The notes under the pieces are model-generated. The model ran no database searches. It was not told where the DNA came from and worked only from the letters and a program-made list of their open reading frames with translations. Made by a program: the position numbers and the translations under genes. Positions 15,721-37,739 of a stretch of 52,803 nucleotides of DNA are shown in pieces; position 1 is the stretch's first letter, and every line of letters starts with the position of its first letter. The stretch covers positions 1 through 52,803 of the forward strand of contig RFGP01000009.1 in assembly GCA_003697365.1 (NCBI GenBank). The letters are read 5' to 3'. This DNA is from Chloroflexota bacterium. GTDB lineage: Bacteria; Chloroflexota; Anaerolineae; Aggregatilineales; J027.

Positions 15721-16346
15721 GTTGGTTTCAGTTGAGACAGCACGACTTCGCGAATTTTATTGGCAATAGTGTTAGGATCATCATTGGCATTGACTTGCTT
15801 CCAACGATTTGGGTCAGCTTGCATTAAAGCCTGATACCCCGCATAAACACGCTGATAAAAAGCCAAATCTTTATCATCCAAGCGATTATATTCTTGCCCT
15901 TCGCGTGCCGCATCATATCGGCGTTGAAGCCCAACTTGTGGATCAGTATCCAAAAAAAGTGTTAAATCTGGCCAAAGCCCATCTGTAGCAAAATTGATAA
16001 TTTGCCTTAAGGGTTCAAGTGGTAATCCATGACCATAGCCCTGATAGGCAAGCGTTGAATCGGCAAATCGATCTGAGATGACAATATTACCTTGTGCTAA
16101 ATGTGGGCGAATAACTTGGCTAACCAACTGAGCACGAGAAGCAACATATAGCAATAATTCTGTGCGTGGATGCATTTCAGCATGTTTCATGTCATGCAAT
16201 ACGTCTCGGATGGCTTCGCCGATGGGTGTCCCACCGGGTTCACGAGTAACTAAGACGCTATATCCTGCTTTTTGCAAAAATTCAAACAAGAGTTTTACTT
16301 GGGTAGTTTTACCACTACCATCCAGTCCTTCAAAAGAAATGAACAT
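15717..16346 (-). CDS. tmk: dTMP (thymidylate) kinase
   Basis: P-loop MFISFEGLDGSGKTTQ and the DRFADSTLAYQG motif. ATG 16346 gives a canonical N-terminus; the ORF-track TTG 16367 overlaps the upstream gene. The stop overlaps the dnaA stop within a shared TTAA (15717-15720). Confidence 0.9.
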   Translation of the reverse strand: MFISFEGLDGSGKTTQVKLLFEFLQKAGYSVLVTREPGGTPIGEAIRDVLHDMKHAEMHPRTELLLYVASRAQLVSQVIRPHLAQGNIVISDRFADSTLAYQGYGHGLPLEPLRQIINFATDGLWPDLTLFLDTDPQVGLQRRYDAAREGQEYNRLDDKDLAFYQRVYAGYQALMQADPNRWKQVNANDDPNTIANKIREVVLSQLKPT

Positions 16347-16351
16347 AAAAA

Positions 16352-16837
16352 CTAACGTCCTAGCCAAGGGGTTGGGTGCGCAATTGCTTCAAGGTGAATT
16401 GGTACATACACCCCTTGAAGTTGATTGTTAAACCATAATACAACCCGCGTATCATAGCGCCCTTGTTGCGTTACGATAAGTGTCAATTGGATAACATTTT
16501 CACCATTGGGCGCTAATAAGGGTCGTCGTCGCCTTGCAAACACGAACGAATACCAAGCCCCTTCATCTTCAACCGTTCGATATTCGGGCACCGCACGAAT
16601 GACCTCTATTCCCTGCTGAAGAAAAGTATCCTCAAGGCCAACACTCACAACTTCGCGCTCACTGTCTGTTTGATTTTTGAGAGTGAGCGTCAATGTAAAA
16701 GGCTCATCAACAAATATGGTTGTAGGCATAGTTGCGGATGCTTTGACACTTTGATTTTCAGTTCCTAAATAATAAAGTGCTGCCAATATAAGCAACACAA
16801 CAATAACAATACTTCCAACCCACTTGAGGATTCTCAT
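16352..16837 (-). CDS. Hypothetical membrane-anchored protein
   Basis: ORF with an N-terminal TM helix (ILKWVGSIVIVVLLILAALYYL). ATG 16837 has GGAG 8 nt upstream; the ORF track starts at 16873. I recognised no family. Confidence 0.5.
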   Translation of the reverse strand: MRILKWVGSIVIVVLLILAALYYLGTENQSVKASATMPTTIFVDEPFTLTLTLKNQTDSEREVVSVGLEDTFLQQGIEVIRAVPEYRTVEDEGAWYSFVFARRRRPLLAPNGENVIQLTLIVTQQGRYDTRVVLWFNNQLQGVYVPIHLEAIAHPTPWLGR

Positions 16838-20066: not shown

Positions 20067-21497
20067 ATGCGTACTTTCATTATAGCTGATAAACGACTTA
20101 TACAACCTTTTAACGAACCCGCTAGCAATCTTCAGGTTATTAGTCCTTCGGGCTTGCCTGCTAATTTACAAATTCATCATAAAGAAGTAACAGCGCGTTG
20201 TCTTGAGCCCTGCCCCGTAGAAGAAGACCTCACAGAATATGAAGACTTAAAAGAAGTATTGCAACGTGACCGACCGGGAGTACGTGCCGACGATTCCATT
20301 TTTGTTTATCGTGATAATATTTACTTTGATGAAAATTTTTTGAATTATTTTATTAAAGCAGCTCGTAATCTAGGAAAACCCTGCCAAGCAGTTTTGCCCG
20401 CTGATGACCCAGCATGGCAAAAATACGTTATTCCACTAAGCAGTCTAAAACGGATTATTCCACCATCCGGGCCTGAATATTATCCTGTAGAGATGTACTA
20501 CTTGCCTTCAGGGTGGGCCGAACGCCAAGAACTTATTCCTATTGCCATTCCATCAGGGGCAATTGAAAAAGGCTATTACAACATCCCCGATACCATGACA
20601 AATATTAAACTTGATACTCCTAAACGCGGAAGTCGTGGAAGAAAACGCGAAGAGAATGTCCGTAAAGATCAAGACCTGACACATTTTCTTTCAGAACGGA
20701 CTTGTGTAGTTATTGAAAGTTGGGTACATCTGTTCAATGCTGTTATCCCGTTAGGTGTATTCTCACGCTCTAGTCGGTTCGACGAACAAGTTAGCCGTCA
20801 CAATCTTTTCGCACTAAAACTTTTGTTAAAAGCAATTATTGAACAACGCCAAGTATTGTCTTCGTCTGGTGCAGTACAAGTTGGCGCTGGAACAGTTATT
20901 CATCCAACTGCCGTTATTTCTGGCCCAGCGGTTATTGGCCAAAACTGTGACATTGGTCCCGGTGTTGTTATCGATAATTGCATCATTGGGGATAATGTGA
21001 CCATTGCTACAGGTTGCCAACTCATGTTAAGCGTTGTAGGGCATAACTGTTTTCTGCCATTTCGGGCTGCACTATTTATGACGATGTTGATGGAAAACAC
21101 AATTGTTGCTCAAAACACATGCCTTCAAATGTGTGTTGTAGGAAGAAATAGCTTCATTGGAGCAGGTTCAACATTTACAGACTTTAACTTACTACCCTCC
21201 CCCATCAAAGCGCCAAATTATGAAGGCAAATTTGAAGATACACGCCAACCTGTTTTAGGTGGTTGTGTGGGGCACAATTGCCGTATTGGCTCAGGCATGA
21301 TCATTATGCCTGCCCGTATGATTGAATCAGATGTCATTCTGGCTGCATCGCCAGAGCGGCGCATTATACGTAAAAGCATTACTTTTGAGCAAAGCGATCA
21401 TCATGTTTTTCCGCCCAATATTGCGGCTTTGCATCGGCGCTTATATCAACGTGATGAAATTTTAGACGAGAGTCAGTTATTGGATGACTGGATATAA
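20067..21497 (+). CDS. Left-handed beta-helix (hexapeptide-repeat) protein with degenerate nucleotidyltransferase-like N-domain
   Basis: 476 aa. Hexapeptide repeats are visible (VGAGTVIHPTAVISGPAVIGQNCDIGPGVVIDNCIIGDNVTIATGCQL ... VGRNSFIGAGSTF ... VGHNCRIGSGMII). The N-terminus (MRTFIIADKRL) lacks the GxGTRL nucleotide-binding signature. Confidence 0.65.
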   Translation: MRTFIIADKRLIQPFNEPASNLQVISPSGLPANLQIHHKEVTARCLEPCPVEEDLTEYEDLKEVLQRDRPGVRADDSIFVYRDNIYFDENFLNYFIKAARNLGKPCQAVLPADDPAWQKYVIPLSSLKRIIPPSGPEYYPVEMYYLPSGWAERQELIPIAIPSGAIEKGYYNIPDTMTNIKLDTPKRGSRGRKREENVRKDQDLTHFLSERTCVVIESWVHLFNAVIPLGVFSRSSRFDEQVSRHNLFALKLLLKAIIEQRQVLSSSGAVQVGAGTVIHPTAVISGPAVIGQNCDIGPGVVIDNCIIGDNVTIATGCQLMLSVVGHNCFLPFRAALFMTMLMENTIVAQNTCLQMCVVGRNSFIGAGSTFTDFNLLPSPIKAPNYEGKFEDTRQPVLGGCVGHNCRIGSGMIIMPARMIESDVILAASPERRIIRKSITFEQSDHHVFPPNIAALHRRLYQRDEILDESQLLDDWI

Positions 21498-22608
21498 ACC
21501 ATCGATGAGCGAGCATACCTTTGGCTTTATTTTTCACCCTATTAGTATTAAAGAAGATGTCTCACGCAAGTGGCCATGGGTTGGTAAGATTTTAACTGAA
21601 GGGCAAATCAATTTCTTTTCGCGTTTCTTTCCACCCGTAGATATTAGCCATATTCAAGGCATTATTTCTGAAGCAACTGGCGAAAGCGCTGAGGGATGGT
21701 TTGTAGCTTGCCCATACACACCACCAACAATGATGCGCCTTCCAGTGCAAGAAGTGTATCGGAAAATCGTTGCGTGCGGAAAACGCCTCAGTGAAAAAGG
21801 GGCTAAAATTGTAGGCCTAGGGGCCTATACTTCTGTAGTAGGAGATGCTGGTCGCACAATTGCCGAACGGCTCGAAGTTCCAGTAACAACAGGGGATAGT
21901 TATACCGTTTATATTGCCGTAGAGGCCATGCGCGAAGCCGCCCATGTCATGGATATAGACATTCGTGAGGCTAAGGTTGCCGTTGTAGGAGCAACTGGAG
22001 CAATTGGCAGCACATGCGCAGAGCTGTTGGCAAAAGATGTGCCAGAGATAGTATTGGTAGGTCGTAGACTTGATGCACTAGAAAGCACGCGCGAACGCTG
22101 TGAAGGCGCTTTAGCGAGGGTACACACAAGCACAGACATCACCGCCATCTATGACGCAGACCTCATTTTAACGGTTACTAGTGCTACACATAGCGTCATT
22201 GAACCGCATCATCTAAAACCGGGGGCTGTTGTCTGTGATGTCGCCCGACCGCGTGATGTAAGTCGCCGTGTATTTGAACAACGCGACGATGTATTAGTTA
22301 TTGAAGGTGGTATGGTAGAAGTACCCGGCCCGGTCGATTTTGGGTTTGATTTTGGCTTCCCTCGTGGCAAATCTTTTGCCTGTATGGCAGAAACGATTGC
22401 GCTCGCGCTTGAAGGGCGTTATGAAGATTACACAATAGGCAAGCACATAAGCATTGAGCAAGCAAAAGAAATTGGCGAAATTGCCACACGACATGGTTTC
22501 CGATTGAGTGGTTTTCGTACATTTGAAAAGCCGGTTACAGAAGAGCATATTGCTCGTGTACGCGAGCGCGCTCAACAAACAGGGCGCACTTGGCGACCAT
22601 CATATTAA
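21484..22608 (+). CDS. Acyl-ACP reductase (AAR)-family NAD(P)-dependent reductase homologue
   Basis: Blocks align by eye with cyanobacterial AAR: FGFIFHP / FGLIGHL; GLGAYTSVV / ALGGFTSII; VTTGDSYTVY...AKVAVVGATGAIGS / FTTGNTHTAY...ATVAVVGATGDIGS; SFACMAETIALALEG / MFACFAEAMLLEFEG; IGEIATRHGF / IGEASVRHGF. It overlaps the preceding gene by 14 nt. An alternative start is ATG 21505. Confidence 0.7.
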   Translation: MTGYKPSMSEHTFGFIFHPISIKEDVSRKWPWVGKILTEGQINFFSRFFPPVDISHIQGIISEATGESAEGWFVACPYTPPTMMRLPVQEVYRKIVACGKRLSEKGAKIVGLGAYTSVVGDAGRTIAERLEVPVTTGDSYTVYIAVEAMREAAHVMDIDIREAKVAVVGATGAIGSTCAELLAKDVPEIVLVGRRLDALESTRERCEGALARVHTSTDITAIYDADLILTVTSATHSVIEPHHLKPGAVVCDVARPRDVSRRVFEQRDDVLVIEGGMVEVPGPVDFGFDFGFPRGKSFACMAETIALALEGRYEDYTIGKHISIEQAKEIGEIATRHGFRLSGFRTFEKPVTEEHIARVRERAQQTGRTWRPSY

Positions 22609-22691: not shown

Positions 22692-22700
22692 TGTTATACT
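22692..22700 (+). promoter_or_regulatory. Candidate extended -10 elements upstream of the signalling operon
   Basis: TGtTATACT at 22692-22700. A second, similar element TGtTATATT lies at 22634-22642. Both sit in the shared context TATGTTATA. The -35 regions are weak. Confidence 0.3.
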
Positions 22701-22840
22701 AAAGCAATAATGGGCACAGTAAATTGTTATTACAGAGTTGCCTATCTATTTGCAAACATTCATAGGTCACACATTCAATCACAAACCCTTTGAGGAAAGG
22801 AGGCTAGCGTCAAGCCAACAGACTTGGCGCTGAAGGATTG

Positions 22841-23755
22841 ATGAGCAAAGGTCGTATTTTAGTCGTCGAAGACGATTTTGATATTTCAAACATGTTACGT
22901 ATTTACTTCACGGGGCAAGGGTACGATGTGCAGGTTGCTGCGCGTGGTAGCGATGCTCTAGAGATGACTCGTAAACAACTGCCACAACTCATCGTACTTG
23001 ACATTATGTTACCCGATATGAATGGGTACGATGTCTGCCGAGAGTTGCGTCAAACAACACGCACCAGTCATATTCCTATTATGTTCCTCACTCAAAAAGA
23101 TGAGCGCTCCGACAAGCTCATTGGCCTTGAGTTAGGAGCGGACGATTACATCACCAAGCCCTTTGACATCGAAGAGCTAAAGCTACGTGTCAAAAACCAA
23201 ATTGAACGCGCTGAACGTGAAAACTATACTGATCCTAACAGCGGTTTACCCAGTAGCGCTATCATTGAAAATCGCCTCAGAGAGTTAATGCGCTCAGAAG
23301 AAACATGGACTTATTTAGATGCTAAAATCGAGCACTTCGATGACTTTAAAGAAGTTTATGGCTTCGTCGCCGGCACAGAGGTTCAACGCTTTACATCACT
23401 AATTATTGGTGAAATCGTTGATAAATACGGTACCCCCAATGACTTTTTAGGGCATCCCGGCAGTAATAACTTTGTGATCATCACGTATACAGATCGTAGC
23501 GATGTTTTCGAGCAGAAATTGATCGAACGATTTAATCAAGAGGTACAGCAACACTATTCATTTATAGACCGTGAACGCGGTCATATGCTGCGTGATGGGC
23601 GCGAAATACCTTTAATGACCTTATCAGTAGGCTCAGTATCGAATGCAACGCATCATTTCGCTGATATTCGCGAAATCACTGAGCGGGCTGCTGAAGATCG
23701 ACGACGAGGTGACGAAAGTGAAGACGACAGCGAGCCCATCGAAACATCGTGGTAG
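22841..23755 (+). CDS. Response regulator: receiver domain + degenerate GGDEF domain
   Basis: The REC domain is intact (ILVVEDD, LIVLDIMLPDMNG, ITKPF). The C-terminal GGDEF fold has GSNNF (23459-23473) in place of GG(D/E)EF, TPND in place of the RxxD I-site, and YGFVAGTE in place of NDxxGHxxGD. Confidence 0.85.
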   Translation: MSKGRILVVEDDFDISNMLRIYFTGQGYDVQVAARGSDALEMTRKQLPQLIVLDIMLPDMNGYDVCRELRQTTRTSHIPIMFLTQKDERSDKLIGLELGADDYITKPFDIEELKLRVKNQIERAERENYTDPNSGLPSSAIIENRLRELMRSEETWTYLDAKIEHFDDFKEVYGFVAGTEVQRFTSLIIGEIVDKYGTPNDFLGHPGSNNFVIITYTDRSDVFEQKLIERFNQEVQQHYSFIDRERGHMLRDGREIPLMTLSVGSVSNATHHFADIREITERAAEDRRRGDESEDDSEPIETSW

Positions 23756-23820
23756 TGGAATACAAGGAAGGAGAATGCCCACAACTTCTCATTGAAGTCG
23801 TGTGGCAATAGAAGAGCATC

Positions 23821-26800
23821 ATGAGCTTTGAACTGCTACTAGTAACAGTTGGACTAGCTGGGTTGACATGGCTCTACGCTTTTACACGACAAATGGCGAG
23901 AAGCCAAGCGCGGTTTCGGTCCGTAGATGCCAAGCGCACCATTCCTGTGAATTTGTTGAATAATGATGGTGCGGTGATCGTGGCTGAAGGACGTGGACAT
24001 CTCATCTATATTAGTCCACGCGCCGCTGAATGGTTTGAATTGAGTGGTGTTGAGCCTAATCTGACTATCTTAGCCTCAAGAGTACAACCTGCGGATGTAT
24101 TCCATGATCTTTTTGCGCAAGAAGGTCGAGCTCTATTGCGCATCGGGATGCGACGTGTCGAAGCAGCATCTTATGCGCTTCCGACAGCAGAGGGGCAACG
24201 ATTTGTTGTCTTTATGCGCGAAGTTGCAACAAGTGATAAAGAAGAGATTTTTGATACGGCGCGCGCCCTGACCGTTGTTCAAGACATCAGCAAAACCATT
24301 ACTATTGGAGCTGATTTGAATCAAACCATGACAACCATTCTTACCAGTATCAGCAGTGTTATTGAATACGATGCTGGTGAAGTAATTCTGTGGGATCAAA
24401 CGCTTAATCGCCCGCGCCCTGTCGGAAAAGTAGGAAACGGTTATAGCAATTACGTTAATAGTAGCAACGGAAATGGAAGTTCAGCGGATTCTGATTCAGG
24501 CTATACATCATGGATAGCGCGCTATCAGCAGCCATTATTGCTGAATGATGTATCTGTTCGTGCAGATGTTGGCCCACGCAGCGAAGCCTTTCCATATCAA
24601 AGCTATGTAGGTGTTCCTTTAACTGTCAGTGGGCGTTTTATTGGCACTATCGAACTTGCTAGCAATAAGCCCCATGCCTTCACACATGAAGATTTACGCC
24701 TCCTAGAATCAGTAGCAGGGCAAGCAGCCGTTGCTATCGAAAACTCTAGATTAGCGACAGAACAAGCAAATCGCATTTTACAGCTTAATGGTTTGCAAAA
24801 TATCGCCCAAACAATGGGTGAAGAAGTCGATAAACGTGAGCTCTACCAAAAATTACACGAGCGCATCGCAAACTTGCTCAATGTCGAAATCTGTGGATTG
24901 CTATTATATGATGCCAATACCGACGCGCTCATCAGTCAATTACCTTTTTTTGGTGTGACCGACGCTGTCATGTCTTTGCATCGGCTTGATGTTTCTTCTA
25001 AAAGCCATGCTCACCGCATTTGGCAAAGCAACGTTTGGTGGTATAGCAACCAAGTTCTGAATGATGAAATGTCAAATGCGCTTAATTTACGTGGGCTTGC
25101 AGAAACTATCGGCATTCATAACGCTGCGATGATTCCTGTCAGCATTGGTGGCAAACGTATAGGTATGCTGCTAATAGCGAACAAGCGTGATGATGGCAAC
25201 TTTACTGACGATGATATGCGCCTAGCTAGCATTTTTGCCACCCAAGCAGCAATCGTTGTTGAAAACGCGAATCTATACGAGCGTGAGCGCCACTATATGG
25301 CGGAATTAGCGAATCTACAAGAAATAGCCCAAGGCGTTCGCCGTTCGCCAGAAGACCTTATCGCCCACATAACAGAGCACATCGCACAGCTACTTGAAGT
25401 AGAAATGTGCGGCATATTACTGTATGAAAACGAACGTAAATTATTGGTGGCACAATCGCCATTTTTTGGTATAGATGATGAAACAATAAAATTTTATCAG
25501 ATTCCTATTGAACCAGAATCTATTTTTGTACAACTTCAAGAAGGTAAACCTTATTGGTATAGCAATCAAATAGGCTTAGAAACATGGGCAGGTGCAGTTA
25601 GTTTTGCGCAATTAGCGAATATGGCGGGTGTGCGCAAAGTGATGTTTGCACCTCTTGTTGTGGGGGATATTCAATTTGGGCTACTACAAATTGCCAACCC
25701 TATCAATGAGCGCAACTTTAATCAAGAAGATGGTCGTGTATTAAGCCTAGCAGCTACTCAAGCGGCTGTTTTATTAGATAACACCAATTTACACCAAGAT
25801 GTAGAACGCCTCTCACGCGAAGCATTGGCATTACGTCGTATTGCTGAACGTTTGGCCATGCCGCTTAATGAAACAGAAATCTTTGAAACAGTACTTGATG
25901 AATTATTTGATGTTATAGGCTGTGAACAGGTCGCCATAGCATTATTAGATAACCAAAACGGTAAATTAGTTTATCGAAATGAGATGATGCGTGGGATAAA
26001 GCTCCCACAATCTCCATTTGAAATAGATATTTACAGCTCAGACTTTAACCACAGCCCTATTATGTCTCGCAAGCCTTTTATTAGCTATGATATACCAAAT
26101 GATAAACGTGTCTTGCCCGTTTATCGTGAGCTTGCAACACTCTTACAACTACAAAAAGATGTATTGATTGTTCCTTTGATCAGCAACCAACGCGCTATTG
26201 GCGAGCTAGCGGTTGGTAACAAAAAACAAGGGCTATTTTCTCAATCAGATGAAGAACTTTTATTAGCCATTGGTGCCCAGATAGCCACAGCACTTGAACG
26301 AGCGCGTTTATATTCCTTAACCGATGCTGATTTACGCACACGCATAGAAGAACAAGAGGCTATTCAGCGTATTCATCGTGAGTTAAGCGAAACCCTCTTA
26401 ATTGATCGTGTGCTAGAAGTCATTCGTAATGAAGCCCTTCTCACCACAAATGCGATTGGCGTTAGTGTGGGGTTATTGTTACCAAGCACATTGTGGGTTG
26501 ATGAAGATGTACCTGAGCTTGAAACACGCTTAGGGGCAGAGCTTCTATTTCCTAATGAAACCAACCCAGCCATCATTCATAGGCTTAATGACATAGAAAA
26601 GCGCATGTTTGATAGTGCTGAAACAATCGTCGTAGAAGACTATAGCAACGCAGATATTAATGCGGTGCCATCAACAGCACAATCTGCACTTGTTGAACCG
26701 ATTTATTTTGAAAATGAGATCATTGGCTTTATTCACCTCTATAGCGATAAACCTAATACTTTTGATGCAACAACACAAGCGTTCGTCAAAAAGTTAGGGC

Positions 26801-29800
26801 AACAAGCATCGTTAGCGGTCACGAATGCTCGACGTTATCGCGATCAAGTCCAAGCCAATGAGCGCCTTAAACGACGAGCTGATCAAATACAAAATGTCTT
26901 CCGCTTAGGGGAATTAGTACGGCAAGGAAAAGACATCCACGCAATAATGGATGTGATCGCTAAAAACATCCGTGAAACTGTGGGATTTGAACAAATCTTG
27001 ATCCGTGTTCTTAATGAGCGCGATCAAACCTTTGATGTTGTGAATCATTTAGGTATTGATGCCAAGTCCTTTGAAGACCCATCCGTTCGCTCTCGTTCTA
27101 TTGAGGAAGTTAACGCATTATTTGACCCACGATGGAAGACGGGGTCCGTTTACTTTTTCCCAGCAAATTTTCAGGATGAATGGCGTGCTGGGCTACAAAG
27201 CACAAAACTTGTAGATGATCCCTTAAAGCATACATCTGGTAGCGGGCCACGGCGCTGGCATCCTGATGACCTATTGGTGATTCCTGTATATAATGCTGCC
27301 CAAAAATTAATTGGCATTATCTCCCTTGATGATCCTAAAAATGGAATGCGCCCCACGCGCGAAGTCATTGATTTACTCGAAGGTTTTGCGGCACAAGCGG
27401 CTTTTGCGATTGAAAGCCATCAACTTGTTGATAATATTCGTCAACAAGCCGAAGAAGCCCGTCGCGAGCGGGACCGTCTTGCACAATTAAATCTTGCCTC
27501 TAGTGAAATTCAGCGCGCTCCAGACATGACGAGCCGCTTAAATGCTGTGGCAGCAGCAATCCATGCGGCGGGATGGCAACATGTACAAATCACACTCCGA
27601 GACCCTCAACTTGAGCCCACACAATTTATTAGTGTCGGATATACACCTGAAGAAGAAATTCAAATCCAACGCACCCTAACGCCGGGTAGCGTTTGGCAAG
27701 AGCGTTTCAATGACCTTGAATTCCACGAGCTCAAACTCGGAAATGCTTACTATCTACGCTATGATAGTGAATGGGTAACGAAGAACATTCGGCGTGGTGA
27801 GCCCGCCGATCCCCCCCAAGTTGATGAAGACGAATGGCATCCGCAAGATGTAATATATCTCCCATTAATGGGGCATGACCAAAAACGTATTATTGGTCTC
27901 ATTCGTCTAGATTCTCCTGTAGATGGCAAGCGCCCTACTGAACAATCATTGCAACCAATTGAATTGTTCGCCTTACAAGCAGCAGCAGCCATCGAAAACC
28001 AAAGACTTTATACTGAAACAGTCCGTCAAGCAGATATTGAACAACAATTGAACCGCTTGATGGAAGCAATGGCCTCTACACTAGATCAAGCAGAAATCAT
28101 CTTAGCGCTTTCAGAAGGTTTACGCCCATTTGTTATCTTCACGCACATGCATTTGGCGGTGCGCTCTGACGCTGATCCTGACTTCTTTGAGATGACTCGT
28201 GTAGAGCTAACACCAGATAATCAAACTTACATCTTGCCAGATAATCCTATTCCATTACAAGGAACTGCTGCAGGAGAAGTATACTATACGGGTGAAACTC
28301 GTATTTTTGAGCTAAACGCAGCTGACGCTGAAAGTTATGAATACACCGATTTACAAACATGGGCAGCACAAGGCGAACGCAACGTGTTGATGGTGCCCCT
28401 CATAGCAGGCGGTGATCGTTTAGGTGTGCTGCGTCTTGGTAGTGAGCTCGATCAAGCCTTCCGTTTTGCAGATAGCCAAACCCTTACCTTGATTCAGCGG
28501 ATGGCCAATCTGACGACTGTTTCCATTCAAAACTCTCGTCTATTCAATAACTTAGGTGAAAGCCAATCATTCAACGAAGCGGTCGTTCAATCTATCCAAC
28601 AAGGTATTGTGGTGTTGGATGAGAATCTACGCATTCGTATTGCCAATCAATACATGATGACCCACTATGGTTGGACATACCAAGCAGTAGGGTCTACGCT
28701 TTTTGAGTATCTTCCAGAACTATCGAATGTGCTTTCTCATCCCATTGAGACTGTGCTCGAAACAGGACGTAATACTCAAAAAATGGATGTTACCCTAACA
28801 GGGCAAATTACCAATCTAGAGTTCCTTGTGAATTTCTATATCTATCCTTTGCGACAAGGAACGCGCGTTAACGGTGTCGTATTGCTGATTGAAGACATTA
28901 CTGAACGTGCACAACTAGAAGCTGACGTACGTCGCCGTGCAGAACAATTAGCTGCACTTACCAATGTCTCTAGCAGCATGACGCAAACCCTCCAACCTGA
29001 TCAAGTGGTCGAAGTTGTGTTAGATGCACTTGAAGAAGTTATCCCCTACGATGGTGTGGTGTTGTGGCTAGAACATCCAACCCGTCCCAATAGCTTAGAG
29101 ATTGTAGCAGCGCGTGGGTTTAACGATCCCGCCGCTTCATCAGCTGATGATTTAATACACTTGTGGATCGAAATTGATGACAGCTTGCTCTTCAAGGAAA
29201 TGGCTCAACAACGGCAAGTCGTGAATATTGGCGATACTGCCGACGACCCGCGCTTCCCGATGGGTGCTGAGCGAGTTTATCGTTGTTTCTTGGCAGCTCC
29301 ACTTATCTCTAAGGGTGAGATCATTGGTGTTCTTCAAGTAGAAAAACGTGAGCCTTTCTTCTATGACCAAAACTATGAACAGTTAGCACTTGCGTTTGCC
29401 AACCAAGCTGCAGTGGCACTCAGCAACGCGCGCTTGTTTGCCGAAACACAACAACGCGCCGAAGAGCTAAGGAAGCAAGCTGGTCGTTTAGCACTCTTAA
29501 ACCGCGTTTCAAATGCTTTATCGCAATCGCTAGACCTTGAGAACATCTTTGAGATCACATTACGCGAGACTGTCAATGCCCTAGAAGTTGATTACGCAGC
29601 AGCCATTCAAATAAACATAGATGATGGCATCTGCCGAGTTATTATTGAACATCCACGCGGCAACATTGAGCCAACAATGGCTTTTCGACTTAACAGCTCT
29701 AAAATTATGGAGCGTATCGTTGAAAAAGCCCAACCTGTGCTATTTAATGACATTCAAGCAGAATTGCCCGAACGTCAAGAAGACCTTAAGCGTTTGTTAC

Positions 29801-32724
29801 CACGAGAAGATACCTTACGAACCCTATTTGTTCCATTAGTGGTCAGTGGTAAGGTGATCGGCGTTATTCGCCTAGATGGCGGGCCCGAATCAGAACCTTT
29901 TACTAATGAGCAAGTGGAACTTGCACAAACAATCGCTAGCCAAGCCTCTATTGCCGTCCAAAATGCTAGCCTTTATGAGCAATCATTACAACGTACTTAT
30001 CAACTTGAAACGCTCTTTGAAGCAGGTCAGGCAACATCTGGTGCCATTGATGTCGTTGACGTTTTACGGCGTGTCGCAACGCAAATGTTAATTGCTTTGC
30101 GAGCAGACAGCACCGAAATTATGCGTTGGGATCAGCTAGAAAATTGTCTAATCGTCGACCAAGCCAAAAGCTCTTGGCTTGACGAAACCACAACCGCTGA
30201 AATACGTGGTCTTGTCTATGATCTCACTACATTTCCACTTCGGCGCGAAGTCTTACAAAATCGCAATACCATCACACTGCGCATTGATGATCAAGACTTA
30301 GACCCTTCAGAAAAAGAGCATATGGAAGTGCACGGCGTAACAAATCGTATTCTCGCGCCGCTAGTTGTCAACGAGGTTTCCATCGGTCTTGTTCAAATAG
30401 ACATTCGCGATGAAAATCGGTTTATCGATGCGAACCAAGTGCGATTAGTACGAACGCTCGCCAACCAAGCAGCCGTTGCCATTGAAAATGCACGCCTACA
30501 AAGCGAAACACGTTCGCAAATTGAAGAGCTTTATCTCATTAATGAGCTAGCTAAAGCGGTTTCAAGTACGGTTGATGTTGATGAGCTCTTTGAAACAGTG
30601 AAGCAACAATTACCTCTACTCACAGATGCGCAATATCTATATGTTGCTATCTATGACCGAGAAACGGGTAAACTTAGCTTTCCTGTTGCTTTAGATGATT
30701 ATGGGAATACTTACGATATTGAGCCCTTTGTTCCTTCAGAACACGATGAATTCGGATATATCATCCGTACACAAGCCCCCTTACTGCTAGCAGGGGTTGG
30801 CTTACAAGATGTTCGTAAACAATTTGGCATCACTGAGCCTATGTTCCCTGAAGCCCGCAGCTTTCTTGGTGTGCCAATGATTGCCGGTGATTCATTTGTC
30901 GGTATTCTTGCACTTAGAGATGATCTTGAGTCTCGCAAATTTGACTTTAACGATCAACGCATTTTGTCTACTGTTAGCTCACAAATTGCTGTCACCCTAC
31001 AGAATGCCAATCTGTTCGCTCGGATTACCGACTTTGCCAATGAACTAAATACGCGCGTAGAAGAGCGAACCGCAGAACTTCTACAAGAACGACAACGTCT
31101 CACAACACTGTATGAAATTGCTTCTGAAATTGCCGCCGCCACACTTGATCTTGATCGCGTTTTGAATCGCACCCTTGAGGCACTATCAGAAGCAATTGGG
31201 GCATCAAGTGGAATTGTGTTGGCAATTGATGATATATCTGACATGCTTTATGTCATTGCTCAACGTGGGCTTGATGTGAGCGATGAATCAGAACGTTTAC
31301 AACTAAGACAAAATGAAGGTCTTGCAGGTTGGGTGATTCAACATCGGCAAGGCGTAGTCATTAATGATGTCCAAAATGATCCTCGTTGGATCTCAGTCAG
31401 TGAACGTGATCGCGCTCCTCGTTCAGCCATTGCAGCGCTTTTAGAAAGCGCAGATGATGTGCGCGGCGTAATTATGTTCTTTAGCGAACGAGAAAACGCC
31501 TTTAACGAAGACCATTTACGCCTTGTTACGGCTGCCTCATTACAACTTGCAAATTCAATGAATAATGCTGAGCTATACAGCCTGATTCGTGATCAAGCTG
31601 AGCGTCTGGGTGCAATTCTGCGACAAGAACAAGTAGAGTCTACGAAGACTTCTGCTATTTTGAACTCAGTTGCAGATGGCGTAATGTATGCTAATGAAAA
31701 AGGCATCATTCGCGTTTTCAATAACACCGCGTCGCAAATTCTAGGATTAGATAGCGAACGTGTTTTGAATCGGCATATTCGTGAATTAGCAGGCGTGTAT
31801 GGTGGTCGAGAAACAGGATGGATGGATGCGATCAATAAATGGATGTCTGATCCTACACAACATGTTGAATCAGACTTCGTTGAGTTCACACTCACACTAG
31901 ATGATGGACGAGTGATTAATGTGCGTCTCTCGCCAGTGAATATGGGCGATCAGTTTTTGGGTACAGTTTCCGTTTTCCGTGATATTACTCGTGAAGTAGA
32001 AGTTGACCGCTTAAAGAGCGAATTTGTGGCTACAGTTTCACATGAGCTGCGCACACCTATGACCAGCATCAAAGGTTATGCTGATCTACTCCTACTTGGG
32101 GCAGCAGGCGCACTGACTGAACCACAACAACGCTTCTTACAAACCATTAAACAAAATGCTGACCGCCTTAGCATCCTTGTGAACGATCTACTAGAAGTTT
32201 CACGCATCGATCAAGGTCAAATGCAGCTACGCTTTGCCCCGATTGATGTTGAAGAAGTACTGCAAACTTTACAATCTCATCTTGCAGGGCGCATCAAAGA
32301 TGCAGAACGCGATATTAAGATAGAACTCCACATGGATGAAGAGATGCCGCCTTTGCGTGGTGATTTTGATCGCGTCATTCAAATTTTGCAAAATCTCGTG
32401 GATAATGCTTTCAACTATTCACAAGACCCCTGCACAATTGGTATCCGTGCAGAGTATAATGCACAAAAGCAAACGATCTTGTTTGCAGTCACAGATGAAG
32501 GCATTGGTATTCCTCCCGAAATTCAGGATCGTATCTTTGAACGATTCTTTAGAGGAGATGAATACAGCGATTTGGTTATGGACACACCCGGCACTGGGCT
32601 AGGCCTTGCCATTGTCAAGGAATTAGTGTCAATGCATGATGGCGATATTTGGTTCGATACTGAAGTCGGCAAGGGTACAACTTTTTATGTTGAATTACCA
32701 ATCTATAATGATACAGAGTCCTAG
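23821..32724 (+). CDS. Giant multi-sensor histidine kinase (TM anchor, ~13 GAF, 2 PAS, HisKA, HATPase_c)
   Basis: Single 2,967-aa ORF. It has an N-terminal TM helix. Thirteen GAF-terminal helices of the form QAAVAIENARL recur every ~170-195 aa. PAS domains lie near aa 1580-1700 and 2600-2720. The H-box is ATVSHELRTPMTSIKGY, with N, G1 and G2 boxes (LVDNAFNY, DEGIGI, GTGLGLAIV). Confidence 0.92.
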   Translation: MSFELLLVTVGLAGLTWLYAFTRQMARSQARFRSVDAKRTIPVNLLNNDGAVIVAEGRGHLIYISPRAAEWFELSGVEPNLTILASRVQPADVFHDLFAQEGRALLRIGMRRVEAASYALPTAEGQRFVVFMREVATSDKEEIFDTARALTVVQDISKTITIGADLNQTMTTILTSISSVIEYDAGEVILWDQTLNRPRPVGKVGNGYSNYVNSSNGNGSSADSDSGYTSWIARYQQPLLLNDVSVRADVGPRSEAFPYQSYVGVPLTVSGRFIGTIELASNKPHAFTHEDLRLLESVAGQAAVAIENSRLATEQANRILQLNGLQNIAQTMGEEVDKRELYQKLHERIANLLNVEICGLLLYDANTDALISQLPFFGVTDAVMSLHRLDVSSKSHAHRIWQSNVWWYSNQVLNDEMSNALNLRGLAETIGIHNAAMIPVSIGGKRIGMLLIANKRDDGNFTDDDMRLASIFATQAAIVVENANLYERERHYMAELANLQEIAQGVRRSPEDLIAHITEHIAQLLEVEMCGILLYENERKLLVAQSPFFGIDDETIKFYQIPIEPESIFVQLQEGKPYWYSNQIGLETWAGAVSFAQLANMAGVRKVMFAPLVVGDIQFGLLQIANPINERNFNQEDGRVLSLAATQAAVLLDNTNLHQDVERLSREALALRRIAERLAMPLNETEIFETVLDELFDVIGCEQVAIALLDNQNGKLVYRNEMMRGIKLPQSPFEIDIYSSDFNHSPIMSRKPFISYDIPNDKRVLPVYRELATLLQLQKDVLIVPLISNQRAIGELAVGNKKQGLFSQSDEELLLAIGAQIATALERARLYSLTDADLRTRIEEQEAIQRIHRELSETLLIDRVLEVIRNEALLTTNAIGVSVGLLLPSTLWVDEDVPELETRLGAELLFPNETNPAIIHRLNDIEKRMFDSAETIVVEDYSNADINAVPSTAQSALVEPIYFENEIIGFIHLYSDKPNTFDATTQAFVKKLGQQASLAVTNARRYRDQVQANERLKRRADQIQNVFRLGELVRQGKDIHAIMDVIAKNIRETVGFEQILIRVLNERDQTFDVVNHLGIDAKSFEDPSVRSRSIEEVNALFDPRWKTGSVYFFPANFQDEWRAGLQSTKLVDDPLKHTSGSGPRRWHPDDLLVIPVYNAAQKLIGIISLDDPKNGMRPTREVIDLLEGFAAQAAFAIESHQLVDNIRQQAEEARRERDRLAQLNLASSEIQRAPDMTSRLNAVAAAIHAAGWQHVQITLRDPQLEPTQFISVGYTPEEEIQIQRTLTPGSVWQERFNDLEFHELKLGNAYYLRYDSEWVTKNIRRGEPADPPQVDEDEWHPQDVIYLPLMGHDQKRIIGLIRLDSPVDGKRPTEQSLQPIELFALQAAAAIENQRLYTETVRQADIEQQLNRLMEAMASTLDQAEIILALSEGLRPFVIFTHMHLAVRSDADPDFFEMTRVELTPDNQTYILPDNPIPLQGTAAGEVYYTGETRIFELNAADAESYEYTDLQTWAAQGERNVLMVPLIAGGDRLGVLRLGSELDQAFRFADSQTLTLIQRMANLTTVSIQNSRLFNNLGESQSFNEAVVQSIQQGIVVLDENLRIRIANQYMMTHYGWTYQAVGSTLFEYLPELSNVLSHPIETVLETGRNTQKMDVTLTGQITNLEFLVNFYIYPLRQGTRVNGVVLLIEDITERAQLEADVRRRAEQLAALTNVSSSMTQTLQPDQVVEVVLDALEEVIPYDGVVLWLEHPTRPNSLEIVAARGFNDPAASSADDLIHLWIEIDDSLLFKEMAQQRQVVNIGDTADDPRFPMGAERVYRCFLAAPLISKGEIIGVLQVEKREPFFYDQNYEQLALAFANQAAVALSNARLFAETQQRAEELRKQAGRLALLNRVSNALSQSLDLENIFEITLRETVNALEVDYAAAIQINIDDGICRVIIEHPRGNIEPTMAFRLNSSKIMERIVEKAQPVLFNDIQAELPERQEDLKRLLPREDTLRTLFVPLVVSGKVIGVIRLDGGPESEPFTNEQVELAQTIASQASIAVQNASLYEQSLQRTYQLETLFEAGQATSGAIDVVDVLRRVATQMLIALRADSTEIMRWDQLENCLIVDQAKSSWLDETTTAEIRGLVYDLTTFPLRREVLQNRNTITLRIDDQDLDPSEKEHMEVHGVTNRILAPLVVNEVSIGLVQIDIRDENRFIDANQVRLVRTLANQAAVAIENARLQSETRSQIEELYLINELAKAVSSTVDVDELFETVKQQLPLLTDAQYLYVAIYDRETGKLSFPVALDDYGNTYDIEPFVPSEHDEFGYIIRTQAPLLLAGVGLQDVRKQFGITEPMFPEARSFLGVPMIAGDSFVGILALRDDLESRKFDFNDQRILSTVSSQIAVTLQNANLFARITDFANELNTRVEERTAELLQERQRLTTLYEIASEIAAATLDLDRVLNRTLEALSEAIGASSGIVLAIDDISDMLYVIAQRGLDVSDESERLQLRQNEGLAGWVIQHRQGVVINDVQNDPRWISVSERDRAPRSAIAALLESADDVRGVIMFFSERENAFNEDHLRLVTAASLQLANSMNNAELYSLIRDQAERLGAILRQEQVESTKTSAILNSVADGVMYANEKGIIRVFNNTASQILGLDSERVLNRHIRELAGVYGGRETGWMDAINKWMSDPTQHVESDFVEFTLTLDDGRVINVRLSPVNMGDQFLGTVSVFRDITREVEVDRLKSEFVATVSHELRTPMTSIKGYADLLLLGAAGALTEPQQRFLQTIKQNADRLSILVNDLLEVSRIDQGQMQLRFAPIDVEEVLQTLQSHLAGRIKDAERDIKIELHMDEEMPPLRGDFDRVIQILQNLVDNAFNYSQDPCTIGIRAEYNAQKQTILFAVTDEGIGIPPEIQDRIFERFFRGDEYSDLVMDTPGTGLGLAIVKELVSMHDGDIWFDTEVGKGTTFYVELPIYNDTES

Positions 32725-32771
32725 TCTGTATCTGTCTATGTTTGAATAATGAATAACTTGTGGAGCACACA

Positions 32772-33149
32772 ATGGCAAAAATCTTGATTGCTGAAGACGA
32801 ACGCGACATCCGCGATTTGATTGAATTTACCCTTCAATTCGCTGGGCATGAAGTAATTAAGGCAAGCAATGGCGCAGAAGCCGTTGAGCTGGCCCCACAA
32901 GTCATGCCTGATTTAATCATGATGGACGTGAGAATGCCTAAAATGACAGGATATGAAGCCTGCCGTGAAATCAAAAAAATGGATTCAGTAAAGCATATTC
33001 CTGTTGTTTTTCTATCTGCTAAAGGGCAAGAATCGGAAATCGACACTGGATTAGAAGCCGGCGCATATGAATATATCTTGAAACCTTTTGCCCCAGATCA
33101 ACTGACTCAGCGCATTAATGAGGTGCTGGCGAAGTTCAATATTCAATAG
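32772..33149 (+). CDS. Single-domain response regulator (CheY-like)
   Basis: MAKILIAEDERDIRDL..., phospho-acceptor context LIMMDVRMPKMTG, and ILKPF. GGAG lies 7 nt before ATG 32772; the ORF-track GTG 32760 is less likely. Confidence 0.9.
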   Translation: MAKILIAEDERDIRDLIEFTLQFAGHEVIKASNGAEAVELAPQVMPDLIMMDVRMPKMTGYEACREIKKMDSVKHIPVVFLSAKGQESEIDTGLEAGAYEYILKPFAPDQLTQRINEVLAKFNIQ

Positions 33150-33163
33150 GGGTATTTATTGTT

Positions 33164-34294
33164 ATGAGTGCAATTACGGTTAGTGGTGATTTACTGCATT
33201 ACGAAGTTTTAGGACGAGGTCGGCCTGTTATTTTGTTGCATAGCTGGTTAGGGTCGTGGCGATATTGGATACCCACGATGCAACAGTTAAGTGTCAAATA
33301 TCGCATCTATGCCCTAGACTTGTGGGGATTTGGTGATTCAGGGAAAAACAAACCGTTTTATCATATTGAAGGTCAAGCCCAACTCCTAGAACAATTCCTT
33401 GAGCGTATGGGAATTAGTAAAGCCGTATTTATTGGTCATGGGTTGGGTGCGGCTGTTATGGCACATTTTGCAACACGCCCTAATTGTGGAAAACTCGTAC
33501 ACCGCATGATGGTCATCTCTCCTCCTTTGTTTGGCGCAGGCTTCAGAAACACGTCATCAGATACGTCTACCTCTGCAACAACGACCACATCAACAAACCA
33601 TGACGAACCTACAGAAAAACCAACGGCAACGACCTTTACATTTACGGTAACAGCTTCTGATGATGCCCCTACTGTTGCGCGTTTAAGTGATGCAGATCGA
33701 GCTATGCTACTTAGAGCAGCAGCTAAAAGTGGTACAGATGAGACAGTAGCATCATCAAAGCAACTTACATCTGACACTGATTCCTCAACAGAGGCCCAAT
33801 CAACAGAGCAAACTTCTACAGAAACACCTAAGCCGCTCTCTACACAAGAGATAATCAGCAATAGTGCAAGTAATCCGTTGGCTAATATGGTACAGCGTAT
33901 GAAACCACAGGCTTTGCTGAGCAGACATGTAGATAATACGTCTCCTGATTTTGAGAAATTACGAGTAGAAGTCGAAAAGGCCGATGAAGAAGCGATACGT
34001 GTCAGCTGTTCATCGCTCAGCCAATACAATCCACTGCAAAAACTATTAAAGGTTTCTACACCTACACTGACGTTGTTTGGCGCAAATGACACCTTTATTC
34101 AAATGCCGGATGAATCCATTCTTGAAGCGGTGTCAAACCATGATCAGATTCGGTTACTAGTGTTGCAAAACACTCGGCATTTTCCCATGTTAGAAGACAC
34201 TCCACGCTTCATACGATTATTAAAGGAATTCTTAGAAGCACCAGACCTTCAACAAATTGAAATGAAGGACGAATGGAAACGACGTTTGCGATAA
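33164..34294 (+). CDS. Alpha/beta-hydrolase-fold protein lacking the nucleophile Ser, with a long Ser/Thr/Glu-rich insertion
   Basis: The N-terminal core is typical (PVILLHSWLGSWRYW ... DLWGFGDSGK). The nucleophile elbow reads GHGLG (33434-33448) instead of GHSxG. A low-complexity insert of roughly 110 aa lies at about 33545-33880. The C-terminal Asp and His regions are retained (FGANDT, NTRHFPMLE). Confidence 0.8.
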   Translation: MSAITVSGDLLHYEVLGRGRPVILLHSWLGSWRYWIPTMQQLSVKYRIYALDLWGFGDSGKNKPFYHIEGQAQLLEQFLERMGISKAVFIGHGLGAAVMAHFATRPNCGKLVHRMMVISPPLFGAGFRNTSSDTSTSATTTTSTNHDEPTEKPTATTFTFTVTASDDAPTVARLSDADRAMLLRAAAKSGTDETVASSKQLTSDTDSSTEAQSTEQTSTETPKPLSTQEIISNSASNPLANMVQRMKPQALLSRHVDNTSPDFEKLRVEVEKADEEAIRVSCSSLSQYNPLQKLLKVSTPTLTLFGANDTFIQMPDESILEAVSNHDQIRLLVLQNTRHFPMLEDTPRFIRLLKEFLEAPDLQQIEMKDEWKRRLR

Positions 34295-34340
34295 TCCAAC
34301 TACCATTGACACACCTCATGAGGTTTGATACGCTAGAGTC

Positions 34341-34447
34341 CCCTCACAGTGGGCCTCATGTTCTGTTGCCTTCCGAACCTGGTCAGGACTGAGAAGTAGC
34401 AGCCATAAGGAATGTGCGCAGGTTCATGGGTAAACCTGCTGTGAGGT
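34341..34447 (+). ncRNA. ffs: Signal recognition particle RNA (small/4.5S type)
   Basis: The conserved domain IV core CCTGGTCAGGACT-GAGA-AGTAGCAGCCATAAGG compares with E. coli CCAGGUCAGGUCC-GGAA-GGAAGCAGCCAAGG and has a GNRA tetraloop. A closing helix CCTCACAG (34342-34349) / CTGTGAGG (34439-34446) is present. The exact ends are uncertain. Confidence 0.75.
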
Positions 34448-37373: not shown

Positions 37374-37736
37374 CCTCAAGTTGGCTAGGTGATCGCGCTG
37401 TTGGTTCTATCAACAGTGAGGAAAGTCCGTGCTTCATAGGGTACGATGCTAGCTAACCGCTAGGCAGGGTGACCTGACGGAAAGTGCCACAGAGAAGTAG
37501 ATTGCCCAAGTGTTACTTGGGTGAGGGTGAAACGGTGTGGTAAGAGCACACCAGCGTCACTGGTGACAGTGGCGGCTTGGCAAACCCCATCGGAAGCAAG
37601 ACCAAGCAAAGGTGAGGGGTGACCCGCCCCGCTATCAGCCTTGGGTAGGTCGCATGAGGTGTCGAGTGATCGGCACCCTAGATAGATGATCACCGCCCGT
37701 AAGGGTACAGAACACGGCTTATCGGCCAACTTGGGG
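37374..37736 (+). ncRNA. rnpB: RNase P RNA, bacterial type A
   Basis: Universal blocks are present: GAGGAAAGTCCGTGC (37408-37422), ACGGAAAGTGCCACAGAGAAG, GGTGAAACGGTG, GGTAAGAGCACACCAG and ACAGAACACGGCTTA. The P1 helix pairs CCTCAAGTTGGC (37374-37385) with GCCAACTTGGGG (37725-37736). Confidence 0.93.
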
Positions 37737-37739
37737 TAC

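Follow-up and report, generated by a model that had tools for sequence, protein, structure and literature searches.

A conserved four-gene signalling operon of the Anaerolineae encodes a giant GAF-domain histidine kinase, two receivers, a degenerate GGDEF domain and an alpha/beta-hydrolase fold lacking its nucleophile

We describe a four-gene signalling operon encoded in a 52,803-nt stretch of DNA, hereafter the window (contig RFGP01000009.1 of assembly GCA_003697365.1, from a Chloroflexota bacterium of the Aggregatilineales). The operon encodes a response regulator in which a receiver (REC) is joined to a degenerate GGDEF domain (REC-pGGDEF, or RG), a giant sensor histidine kinase, a stand-alone CheY-like receiver and an alpha/beta-hydrolase-fold protein without a nucleophile (ABH). 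It is real, occurs across the whole class Anaerolineae and is apparently undescribed, as literature searches retrieved no description of the four-gene operon or of the larger cluster to which it belongs; a preliminary description of this DNA, made from the letters alone, had likewise not recognised the combination as a described pathway. By type the operon works like a branched two-component system. It is probably of ancient origin and has been passed on vertically within the Anaerolineae; in it a GAF kinase would feed two receivers, the degenerate GGDEF domain would provide the output and ABH would serve as a non-hydrolysing adaptor. The four genes are as follows.

22841-23755, plus strand: REC-degenerate-GGDEF response regulator (RG), 304 aa
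23821-32724, plus strand: giant sensor histidine kinase, 2967 aa
32772-33149, plus strand: stand-alone CheY-like receiver, 125 aa, with Asp52 at 32925-32927
33164-34294, plus strand: alpha/beta-hydrolase-fold protein without nucleophile (ABH), 376 aa

All four genes are co-directional and separated by 65, 47 and 14 nt, spacings reported in the preliminary description that agree with the open reading frame (ORF) coordinates. The left edge given there, position 22692, falls within a 232-nt spacer preceding RG and opens no ORF; the first gene starts at 22841. RG could start at a TTG at 22838 or an ATG at 22841. The protein initiated at the ATG is identical to database protein P0121 (100% identity and coverage), and this is also the gene as called in assembly GCA_034435655.1, contig DAOTWX010000004.1. 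Translation confirmed all motif positions in the window, including the previously reported GSNNF, TPND and GHGLG motifs.

Gene order is retained throughout the class. Relatives of ABH are found in at least 592 species-representative genomes, almost all bearing the label Chloroflexota, Anaerolineae, Aggregatilineales, Thermoflexus, Ardenticatenia or Phototrophicaceae, and relatives of REC-pGGDEF in at least 598 genomes. Gene order was examined in the best 80 loci of each scan, with ORFs in the relatives called by a simple first-start rule. When ABH is used as the anchor, a CheY orthologue lies immediately 5' in 74 of 80 loci. The complete set of four is seen in 45 loci, and another 26 show the kinase and CheY and not RG, the kinase typically reaching the edge of the fetched DNA. 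With RG as the anchor, the gene after the kinase is CheY in 59 of 59 loci, and CheY is followed by ABH in each of the 56 loci with enough DNA. The neighbourhood, proposed earlier as something to be sought in related genomes, is therefore syntenic across the class with both the hydrolase and the REC-GGDEF protein as anchors. Genes 3' of the operon differ between orders, a YabE-like gene, the RsmA gene and ffs, which encodes the small signal recognition particle RNA, being common to the 10 closest loci only. It is the four-gene block, not the whole region, that is retained. Median identity across orders is 83% for the RG receiver, 67% for CheY, 53% for the degenerate GGDEF domain and 48% for the kinase core.

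The proposal that the four genes form a single transcription unit agrees with what is observed at the junctions. Gaps between orthologues are short, with medians of 17.5 nt between kinase and CheY and 29 nt between CheY and ABH, and the genes overlap in several species. In the window, no convincing terminator or promoter was detected between the genes, consensus scans of the operon for internal promoters giving no more sites than shuffled sequence. The sole hairpin within an intergenic junction, an 8-bp stem at 32710-32732 over the kinase stop codon, is weak (-9.9 kcal/mol, z -1.95) and has a poor U tract; it is not convincing as a terminator and could modulate CheY-ABH expression.

Loss of the catalytic nucleophile distinguishes ABH from the hydrolases whose fold it shares. 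Its features are as follows, the C-terminus being a basic EWKRRLR tail.

33239-33244, plus strand: HS at the oxyanion-hole position
33434-33448, plus strand: GHGLG nucleophile elbow
33542-33865, plus strand: Thr/Ser-rich disordered insert, aa 127-234 (T 24%, S 17%)
34088-34090, plus strand: Asp309
34178-34180, plus strand: His339

Membership of the fold is clear, as ABH matches Pfam Abhydrolase_1 at 66.9 bits against a cut-off of 25.8, and its AlphaFold2 (AF2) model (pLDDT 80; both AF2 models described here rest on shallow alignments) contains a complete core and a confident helical cap, with more than 1200 fold matches in the PDB. Over most of aa 127-234 the pLDDT is below 50, and this insert is missing from the 262-aa orthologues of Anaerolineales. 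An antisense ORF of 218 aa is located inside the insert region (33436-34092, minus strand); it is most likely spurious, a low-complexity by-product, and was not treated as a gene. Of 201 ABH family members, 132 have Gly at the nucleophile position, 37 have Asp, 26 Ser and 6 Ala. Fitch parsimony on a neighbour-joining tree of 193 ABH sequences, constructed with no outgroup, places Gly at the root and requires at least 16 changes. As Gly, Asp, Ser and Ala are small and the last three are single-base neighbours of Gly, this pattern fits drift at a sterically tight, non-catalytic elbow. None of the sequences that extend over the triad residues Asp309 and His339 (about 195) lacks either of them. 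The oxyanion-hole HG is replaced by HS in the window and its clade; among 193 others the position is HG in 126 and HS, HT or HD in 67. The N-terminus MSAIT, the W-x-R-x-x-R motif of the C-terminal tail and cap residues such as K272 are invariant. ABH is thus predicted to be an alpha/beta-hydrolase fold but not a serine hydrolase. The preliminary description had considered catalysis apparently impossible; the loss of Ser stands, while the conclusion was too strong, as the His-Asp dyad is invariant and Asp and Ser variants exist.

These same residues form the basis of the best-surviving alternative, that ABH is still an enzyme, either with His339-Asp309 as general base and no covalent nucleophile, like cofactor-free dioxygenases and some decarboxylases or lyases, or with the Asp and Ser variants using their nucleophile and the Gly forms using water. 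Nucleophile-independent chemistry occurs in the alpha/beta-hydrolase fold, the dyad and cap residues are kept as described, and the confidently folded cap predicts that a pocket probably exists. However, a nucleophile position that changes at least 16 times among four residues looks like neutral drift, the oxyanion HG is variable, and a paralogue termed ABH2, described below, is strictly GHSMG, showing what constraint looks like in this lineage. We consider retained catalysis unlikely.

In RG, an intact receiver is fused to a domain that retains the fold of a diguanylate cyclase in the absence of its chemistry.

aa 1-122 of RG, plus strand: OmpR-type receiver, with Asp54 at 23000-23002
aa 123-304 of RG, plus strand: degenerate GGDEF-fold domain, with TPND at 23432-23443 and GSNNF at 23459-23473

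Pfam Response_reg is detected in both receivers, RG and CheY, at 102 and 105 bits, respectively, and residues D11, D12, D54, T84 and K106 of the RG receiver are invariant among orthologues. The GGDEF domain (PF00990) scores 21.1 bits, below the cut-off of 23.8, with only profile positions 2-115 of 161 matched. In the window, GSNNF stands in place of GG[D/E]EF and TPND in place of the RxxD inhibitory site (I-site). Family-wide the motif reads G-[RGS]-D-N-F, the fourth residue being Asn in 34 of 35 diverse orthologues; in place of the I-site Arg, all 35 carry T, S, N, G or A. Alignment to DgcB with HMMER, together with the family alignment, placed the metal-binding Asp (PleD Asp327) at K162 in the window, this position being K, R or G in orthologues. 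The guanine-binding Asn (Asn335) corresponds to K170 and is variable in orthologues, and the second guanine-binding Asp (PleD Asp344) corresponds to Thr179, a position occupied by Asp in 29 of 35 orthologues. D201, G204-H205, D275-R277-E278 and R287-R288 are invariant. The AF2 model (pLDDT 78) is matched best by WspR (3bre), PleD and DgcR in Foldseek (E 1e-16 to 1e-19), isolated GGDEF domains also being retrieved. Thus, the GGDEF fold is kept and its chemistry is gone with the active-site and metal- and guanine-binding residues. Since four defining features fail, RG is not a diguanylate cyclase, and the domain appears to have been dead throughout the history of the class.

A search of 1.84 billion cluster representatives with the degenerate domain retrieved 758 relatives at E <= 1e-10. 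The nearest after the RG orthologues are GH[IV]GGDDF proteins of many architectures in which the D-x-D-x-F-K, N-D and G-D motifs are intact, and the RG domain thus appears to have arisen by degeneration from within a GGDDF-type subfamily. The two share a G-H preceding the motif and a C-terminal AAE signature; the subfamily keeps D-x-D-x-F-K, N-D, G-D and GGDDF, all of which the operon's domain has lost. A GGDDF motif is active in Geobacter GSU1937 (PMC8835794). Members of this subfamily (P0311-P0389) give only partial Pfam matches while their nucleotide- and metal-binding motifs are intact, and occur as REC-GGDDF, REC-GGDDF-HATPase_c_2, EAL-CBS-GGDDF and hybrid kinases. Closer and more degenerate relatives of the RG domain are fused to EAD7 or CHAT domains.

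Kinship with a subfamily whose nucleotide-binding motifs are intact is one of the observations favouring a second alternative: instead of binding a protein, the degenerate domain may be a receptor for a nucleotide, whether GTP, cyclic di-GMP (c-di-GMP), (p)ppGpp or some other cyclic nucleotide. Nucleotide sensing by degenerate GGDEF domains is known, as in PopA and CC3396 (PMC8835794 and general knowledge), and retention of the Asp344 equivalent in most orthologues, together with the four invariant residue groups listed above, would be consistent with such a role. Against this, the whole family lacks the I-site Arg, has Lys or Arg in place of the metal-binding Asp and varies at the Asn335 equivalent; the window copy has not even the Asp344 equivalent, Thr standing there. 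We consider a nucleotide ligand unlikely.

The kinase carries a long series of GAF and PAS domains ahead of its catalytic core.

23827-23892, plus strand: N-terminal membrane anchor, aa 3-24 (hydropathy scan)
24310-28512, plus strand: GAF repeats 1-8, aa 164-1564 (own-repeat hidden Markov model (HMM) and Pfam GAF families)
28573-28911, plus strand: central PAS, aa 1585-1697 (Pfam PAS_4, PAS)
28990-31554, plus strand: GAF repeats 9-13, aa 1724-2578 (own-repeat HMM and Pfam GAF families)
31651-32007, plus strand: kinase-proximal PAS, aa 2611-2729 (Pfam PAS_9, PAS_7, PAS_8)
32014-32703, plus strand: HisKA and HATPase_c core, with His2741 at 32041-32043 (Pfam)

Pfam alone detects 12 GAF stretches, and an HMM built from the kinase's own repeats detects 13, eight before and five after the central PAS, in agreement with the 13 GAF domains counted previously. 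Hydropathy analysis detected a single hydrophobic helix (residues 3-24) and no further membrane segment. A hydrophobic segment is present within the first 120 residues of 46 of 47 full-length kinases, window included, and at the N-terminal end in nearly all. The catalytic boxes are His2741, NLVDNA, DEGIGI and GTGLGL; across the window and 130 orthologous kinases the H, N, G1 and G2 residues are invariant except for the first Asn (126 of 131). In the same set CheY residues E8, D9, D52, S/T82 (S82 in the window) and K104 are conserved. The earlier claim that the kinase and both receivers keep their catalytic residues is thus borne out in the window and extends to the orthologues, and the predicted phosphorelay residues of kinase, RG receiver and CheY are intact. 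The shortest orthologous kinase has 1989 aa and the longest about 3500, and their detectable GAF repeats number between 6 and 14. The GAF array appears to have been repeatedly expanded and contracted around a fixed N-terminal anchor and catalytic core. Bilin-type photosensory GAFs found no support on a quick look, the kinase having only 7 Cys in 2967 residues.

As the four genes are syntenic in relatives, no convincing promoter or terminator separates them and the orthologues also lack the catalytic GGDEF residues and, for the most part, the Ser, the best reading is that the two pseudoenzymes act as binding or scaffold modules. We infer the binding partners and the biological output from gene anatomy, conservation, residue states and folds, which are themselves observed. 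A kinase of about 3000 residues would be tethered by one N-terminal helix with essentially no extracytoplasmic part, its 13 GAF and at least two PAS domains being cytoplasmic. It would integrate intracellular cues through the GAF/PAS array, autophosphorylate at His2741 and pass phosphate to two receivers. Asp54 of RG is likely to be the main output acceptor, and phosphorylation-driven dimerisation of this OmpR-type receiver may change what the dead GGDEF domain binds. A protein is a likelier partner for it than a nucleotide, and phosphorylated RG may act by binding that partner as do PopA or RssB. Asp52 of CheY would be the second acceptor, with CheY serving as a phosphate sink or connector. 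ABH, whose gene is closely linked to that of CheY, may be a ligand-binding or adaptor subunit that reports to the CheY/kinase pair, for example by holding the substrate or product of ABH2 through the invariant His-Asp pair without turnover.

Several points weigh against this assignment. The partners it names are all predicted from sequence, and the invariant His-Asp pair, with Ser or Asp in approximately 30% of ABH members, may leave room for chemistry. Most of the relatives are metagenome-assembled genomes. The upstream genes of the larger neighbourhood that encode the PATAN protein, the small GTPase and ABH2 do not occur in the 52,803-nt window, which contains only the last six genes. In addition, the link between ABH and CheY is not obligatory, as in five or six loci of one clade (L017, L018, L020, L023, L027), the sole exceptions to the gene order, a GHSLG-type ABH stands alone outside the operon; in the metagenome-assembled genome H110_66, RG, kinase and CheY are located on a contig (L101) separate from that of the lone ABH (L027).

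In many relatives the four-gene operon is the 3' half of a larger, co-directional and conserved neighbourhood of nine genes, in the order PATAN (PatA_N) protein, small GTPase, ABH2, LbH protein, acyl-ACP reductase (AAR)-like reductase, RG, kinase, CheY and ABH. The four-gene order previously described is therefore conserved, while the unit is larger than was proposed, extending upstream to the LbH and AAR-like genes and in many relatives to PATAN, GTPase and ABH2. The two nearest of these genes are present in the window.

20067-21497, plus strand: LbH/hexapeptide-repeat protein (up2), 476 aa, Pfam LbH_EIF2B and Hexapep
21484-22608, plus strand: acyl-ACP-reductase/PigE-N-terminal-like NAD(P) reductase (up1), 374 aa, overlapping up2 by 14 nt

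The up1 reductase, separated from RG by the 232-nt spacer, matches NCBIfam PigE at 232.7 bits and AcACP_reductase at 127.5 bits, both below cut-off, and Pfam Shikimate_DH. Among 72 loci with enough upstream DNA, up2 is found 5' of RG, with or without up1, in 58 and up1 in 52; in Anaerolineales the distance from up1 to RG is often no more than 6-21 nt, so that the transcription unit may be longer in that order. PATAN, small GTPase and ABH2 are located further upstream in 30 of 52 loci, the nine-gene neighbourhood being observed in loci L085, L086, L096, L108, L115, L117 and L126-L165. The GTPase carries the motifs GPFSAGKT (G1), FGTPGQRRF (G3) and NKQD (G4). When ABH2, present in at least 593 genomes, is used as the anchor (loci L167-L246), PATAN and GTPase precede it in 79 of 80 loci and the LbH gene is next in most; none of these best 80 loci comes from the window's nearest relatives. 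The operon ABH has its closest relative in ABH2 (33% identity within one genome, E 3e-43), which keeps HG...GHSMG...D...H, an intact Ser-Asp-His triad, in 37 of 37 sequences. The neighbourhood therefore encodes a paralogous pair of enzyme and pseudoenzyme.

The PATAN and small-GTPase link hints at a possible role in the control of polarity, division or motility. A bolder proposal is that the neighbourhood constitutes a self-contained, class-defining circuit in which ABH2 makes or destroys a small molecule, ABH is its non-hydrolysing receptor and tunes the kinase through CheY, and RG together with a PATAN/GTPase polarity module controls growth, division or motility of thin multicellular filaments, the kinase being a membrane-tethered GAF rod that would extend tens of nanometres. 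Such a circuit is rather improbable in its entirety.

Whichever output applies, the system is class-wide and uncharacterised, and its pseudoenzyme biology is open to test. Anaerolineae are among the most abundant filamentous bacteria of wastewater reactors, sediments and subsurface habitats, and to our knowledge nothing is known of their self-regulation. Receiver identity of about 83% is what we would expect of an essential master regulator, WalR and MtrA being examples. Occurrence in at least approximately 600 species genomes, combined with this identity of the RG receiver across orders, strongly recommends the operon as a candidate core circuit of regulation in the class. Three cases for study are offered as well: a receiver fused to a dead cyclase and kept dead over the whole history of a class; an enzyme-pseudoenzyme pair, ABH2 and ABH, in one neighbourhood, in which the dead copy keeps His-Asp and the nucleophile drifts; and a kinase that lacks an extracytoplasmic sensor and has 6 to 14 or more GAF domains in tandem.

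Conserved gene order could alternatively reflect frozen synteny in an origin-proximal housekeeping region, with no function shared by the four genes. dnaA, tmk, ffs, RNase P RNA, tmRNA and rsmA are indeed nearby in the window, and the metabolic-looking upstream genes are also syntenic. This explanation is very unlikely, however, as the flanks change between orders while the RG-kinase-CheY-ABH order is constant, the gaps are a few to tens of nt with overlaps in several species, and kinase and receivers, by the definition of their families, function as a unit. Recent decay of two enzymes in the window strain, named in the preliminary description as the outcome to be excluded, is hardly conceivable and is rejected because the degenerate states are family-wide, with frames intact, 53-83% conservation across orders and Gly both the commonest and the ancestral state of the elbow, even though the window copy has gone beyond the consensus (GSNNF versus G-x-D-N-F, Thr179 versus Asp and HS versus HG).

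Comparison with characterised systems identified analogues of parts of the operon. RG has the same two-domain REC-GGDEF architecture and fold as WspR, PleD and DgcR, and the phospho-acceptor site of its receiver is complete; it differs from them in having G-x-D/N-N-F and in the loss of the metal-binding Asp and I-site Arg, and is not a cyclase. The best functional analogy is with Caulobacter PopA and E. coli RssB, in which a receiver is joined to an enzyme-fold domain that has lost catalysis and serves in binding. PopA is not phosphorylated and depends on c-di-GMP at an intact I-site, and RssB carries a PP2C-like domain. Homology of RG to these proteins is apparent only in the receiver or the GGDEF fold, and its adaptor role is proposed by analogy only. 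Cyanobacterial CdgK/CdgS-type systems were considered and are unrelated, as they use active enzymes.

The preliminary description had likened the pairing of a hydrolase fold with PAS/GAF signalling to RsbQ-RsbP and to the receptors KAI2/D14, a parallel that holds for the shared fold, does not extend to gene order and finds no support in sequence type. The RsbQ-PAS module requires the catalytic triad of its hydrolase. In this module the hydrolase gene lies immediately upstream of a gene for a protein, sometimes a histidine kinase, whose first domain is an RsbP-type PAS, and the hydrolase is thought to contact the PAS directly (PMC3183031). The operon resembles it in encoding an alpha/beta hydrolase near a PAS-containing signalling protein; ABH, however, is encoded downstream, with CheY between it and the kinase, and lacks the Ser. 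As gene order and triad both fail, the operon is not an RsbQ-PAS module. A profile search of the PDB with ABH was led by CumD, PhaZ, epoxide hydrolases and dehalogenases, the nearest including meta-cleavage-product (MCP) hydrolases. RsbQ is not among the 60 profile matches listed and ranks 20th in Foldseek at 15% identity, no phylogeny including RsbQ having been constructed; Foldseek matches to RsbQ and to KAI2/D14 are no better than those to ordinary esterases. Placement of ABH in an RsbQ or D14/KAI2 clade is therefore unsupported by the profile and fold rankings. D14, KAI2 and GID1 do illustrate the use of this fold as a signal receptor, and KAI2 and D14 structures are among the ABH fold matches at 12-16% identity. 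Signalling by D14 and KAI2 proceeds through hydrolysis with the triad retained, and GID1 loses the His and keeps the Ser. ABH, conversely, loses the Ser and keeps His and Asp.

The Streptomyces conservon (CvnA kinase, CvnB Roadblock protein, CvnC and the small GTPase CvnD; PMC4316618) is a loose analogue of the extended cluster only. The likeness resides in the small GTPase, with an FGTPGQ-RF type G3, and the PATAN protein that neighbour the operon in many relatives, a PATAN-GTPase linkage having been noted before (PMC4316618). The systems differ in that neither Roadblock nor CvnC was seen among the called genes of the relatives' neighbourhoods, the kinase is a giant GAF array with two receivers, and the window contains no GTPase.

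The operon is followed in the window by one RNA gene.

34347-34444, plus strand: ffs (small signal recognition particle RNA), Rfam RF00169, 51.8 bits against a gathering score of 40

The placement of ffs after ABH, noted previously, is confirmed by this match; adjacency is restricted to the closest relatives. A perfect -35 element (TTGACA), a 17-nt spacer and an extended -10-like TGaTACGCT were read by eye at 34306-34334, just 5' of ffs. As an ffs-like match lies 3' of the operon in only 10 of 80 loci, a count from a single-sequence nhmmer search that divergent copies may escape, and as ffs has its own promoter-like site, it is unlikely to be part of the operon; ffs probably has its own promoter, independent of read-through from the operon. 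At the gathering threshold Rfam detected only ffs, RNase P RNA and tmRNA in the window, and no riboswitch or leader in the operon. The tmRNA gene (1843-2235), dnaA and tmk (14317-16367), ffs (34347-34444) and the RNase P RNA gene (37377-37737) all lie within about 36 kb, a stretch that looks like an origin-proximal housekeeping region.

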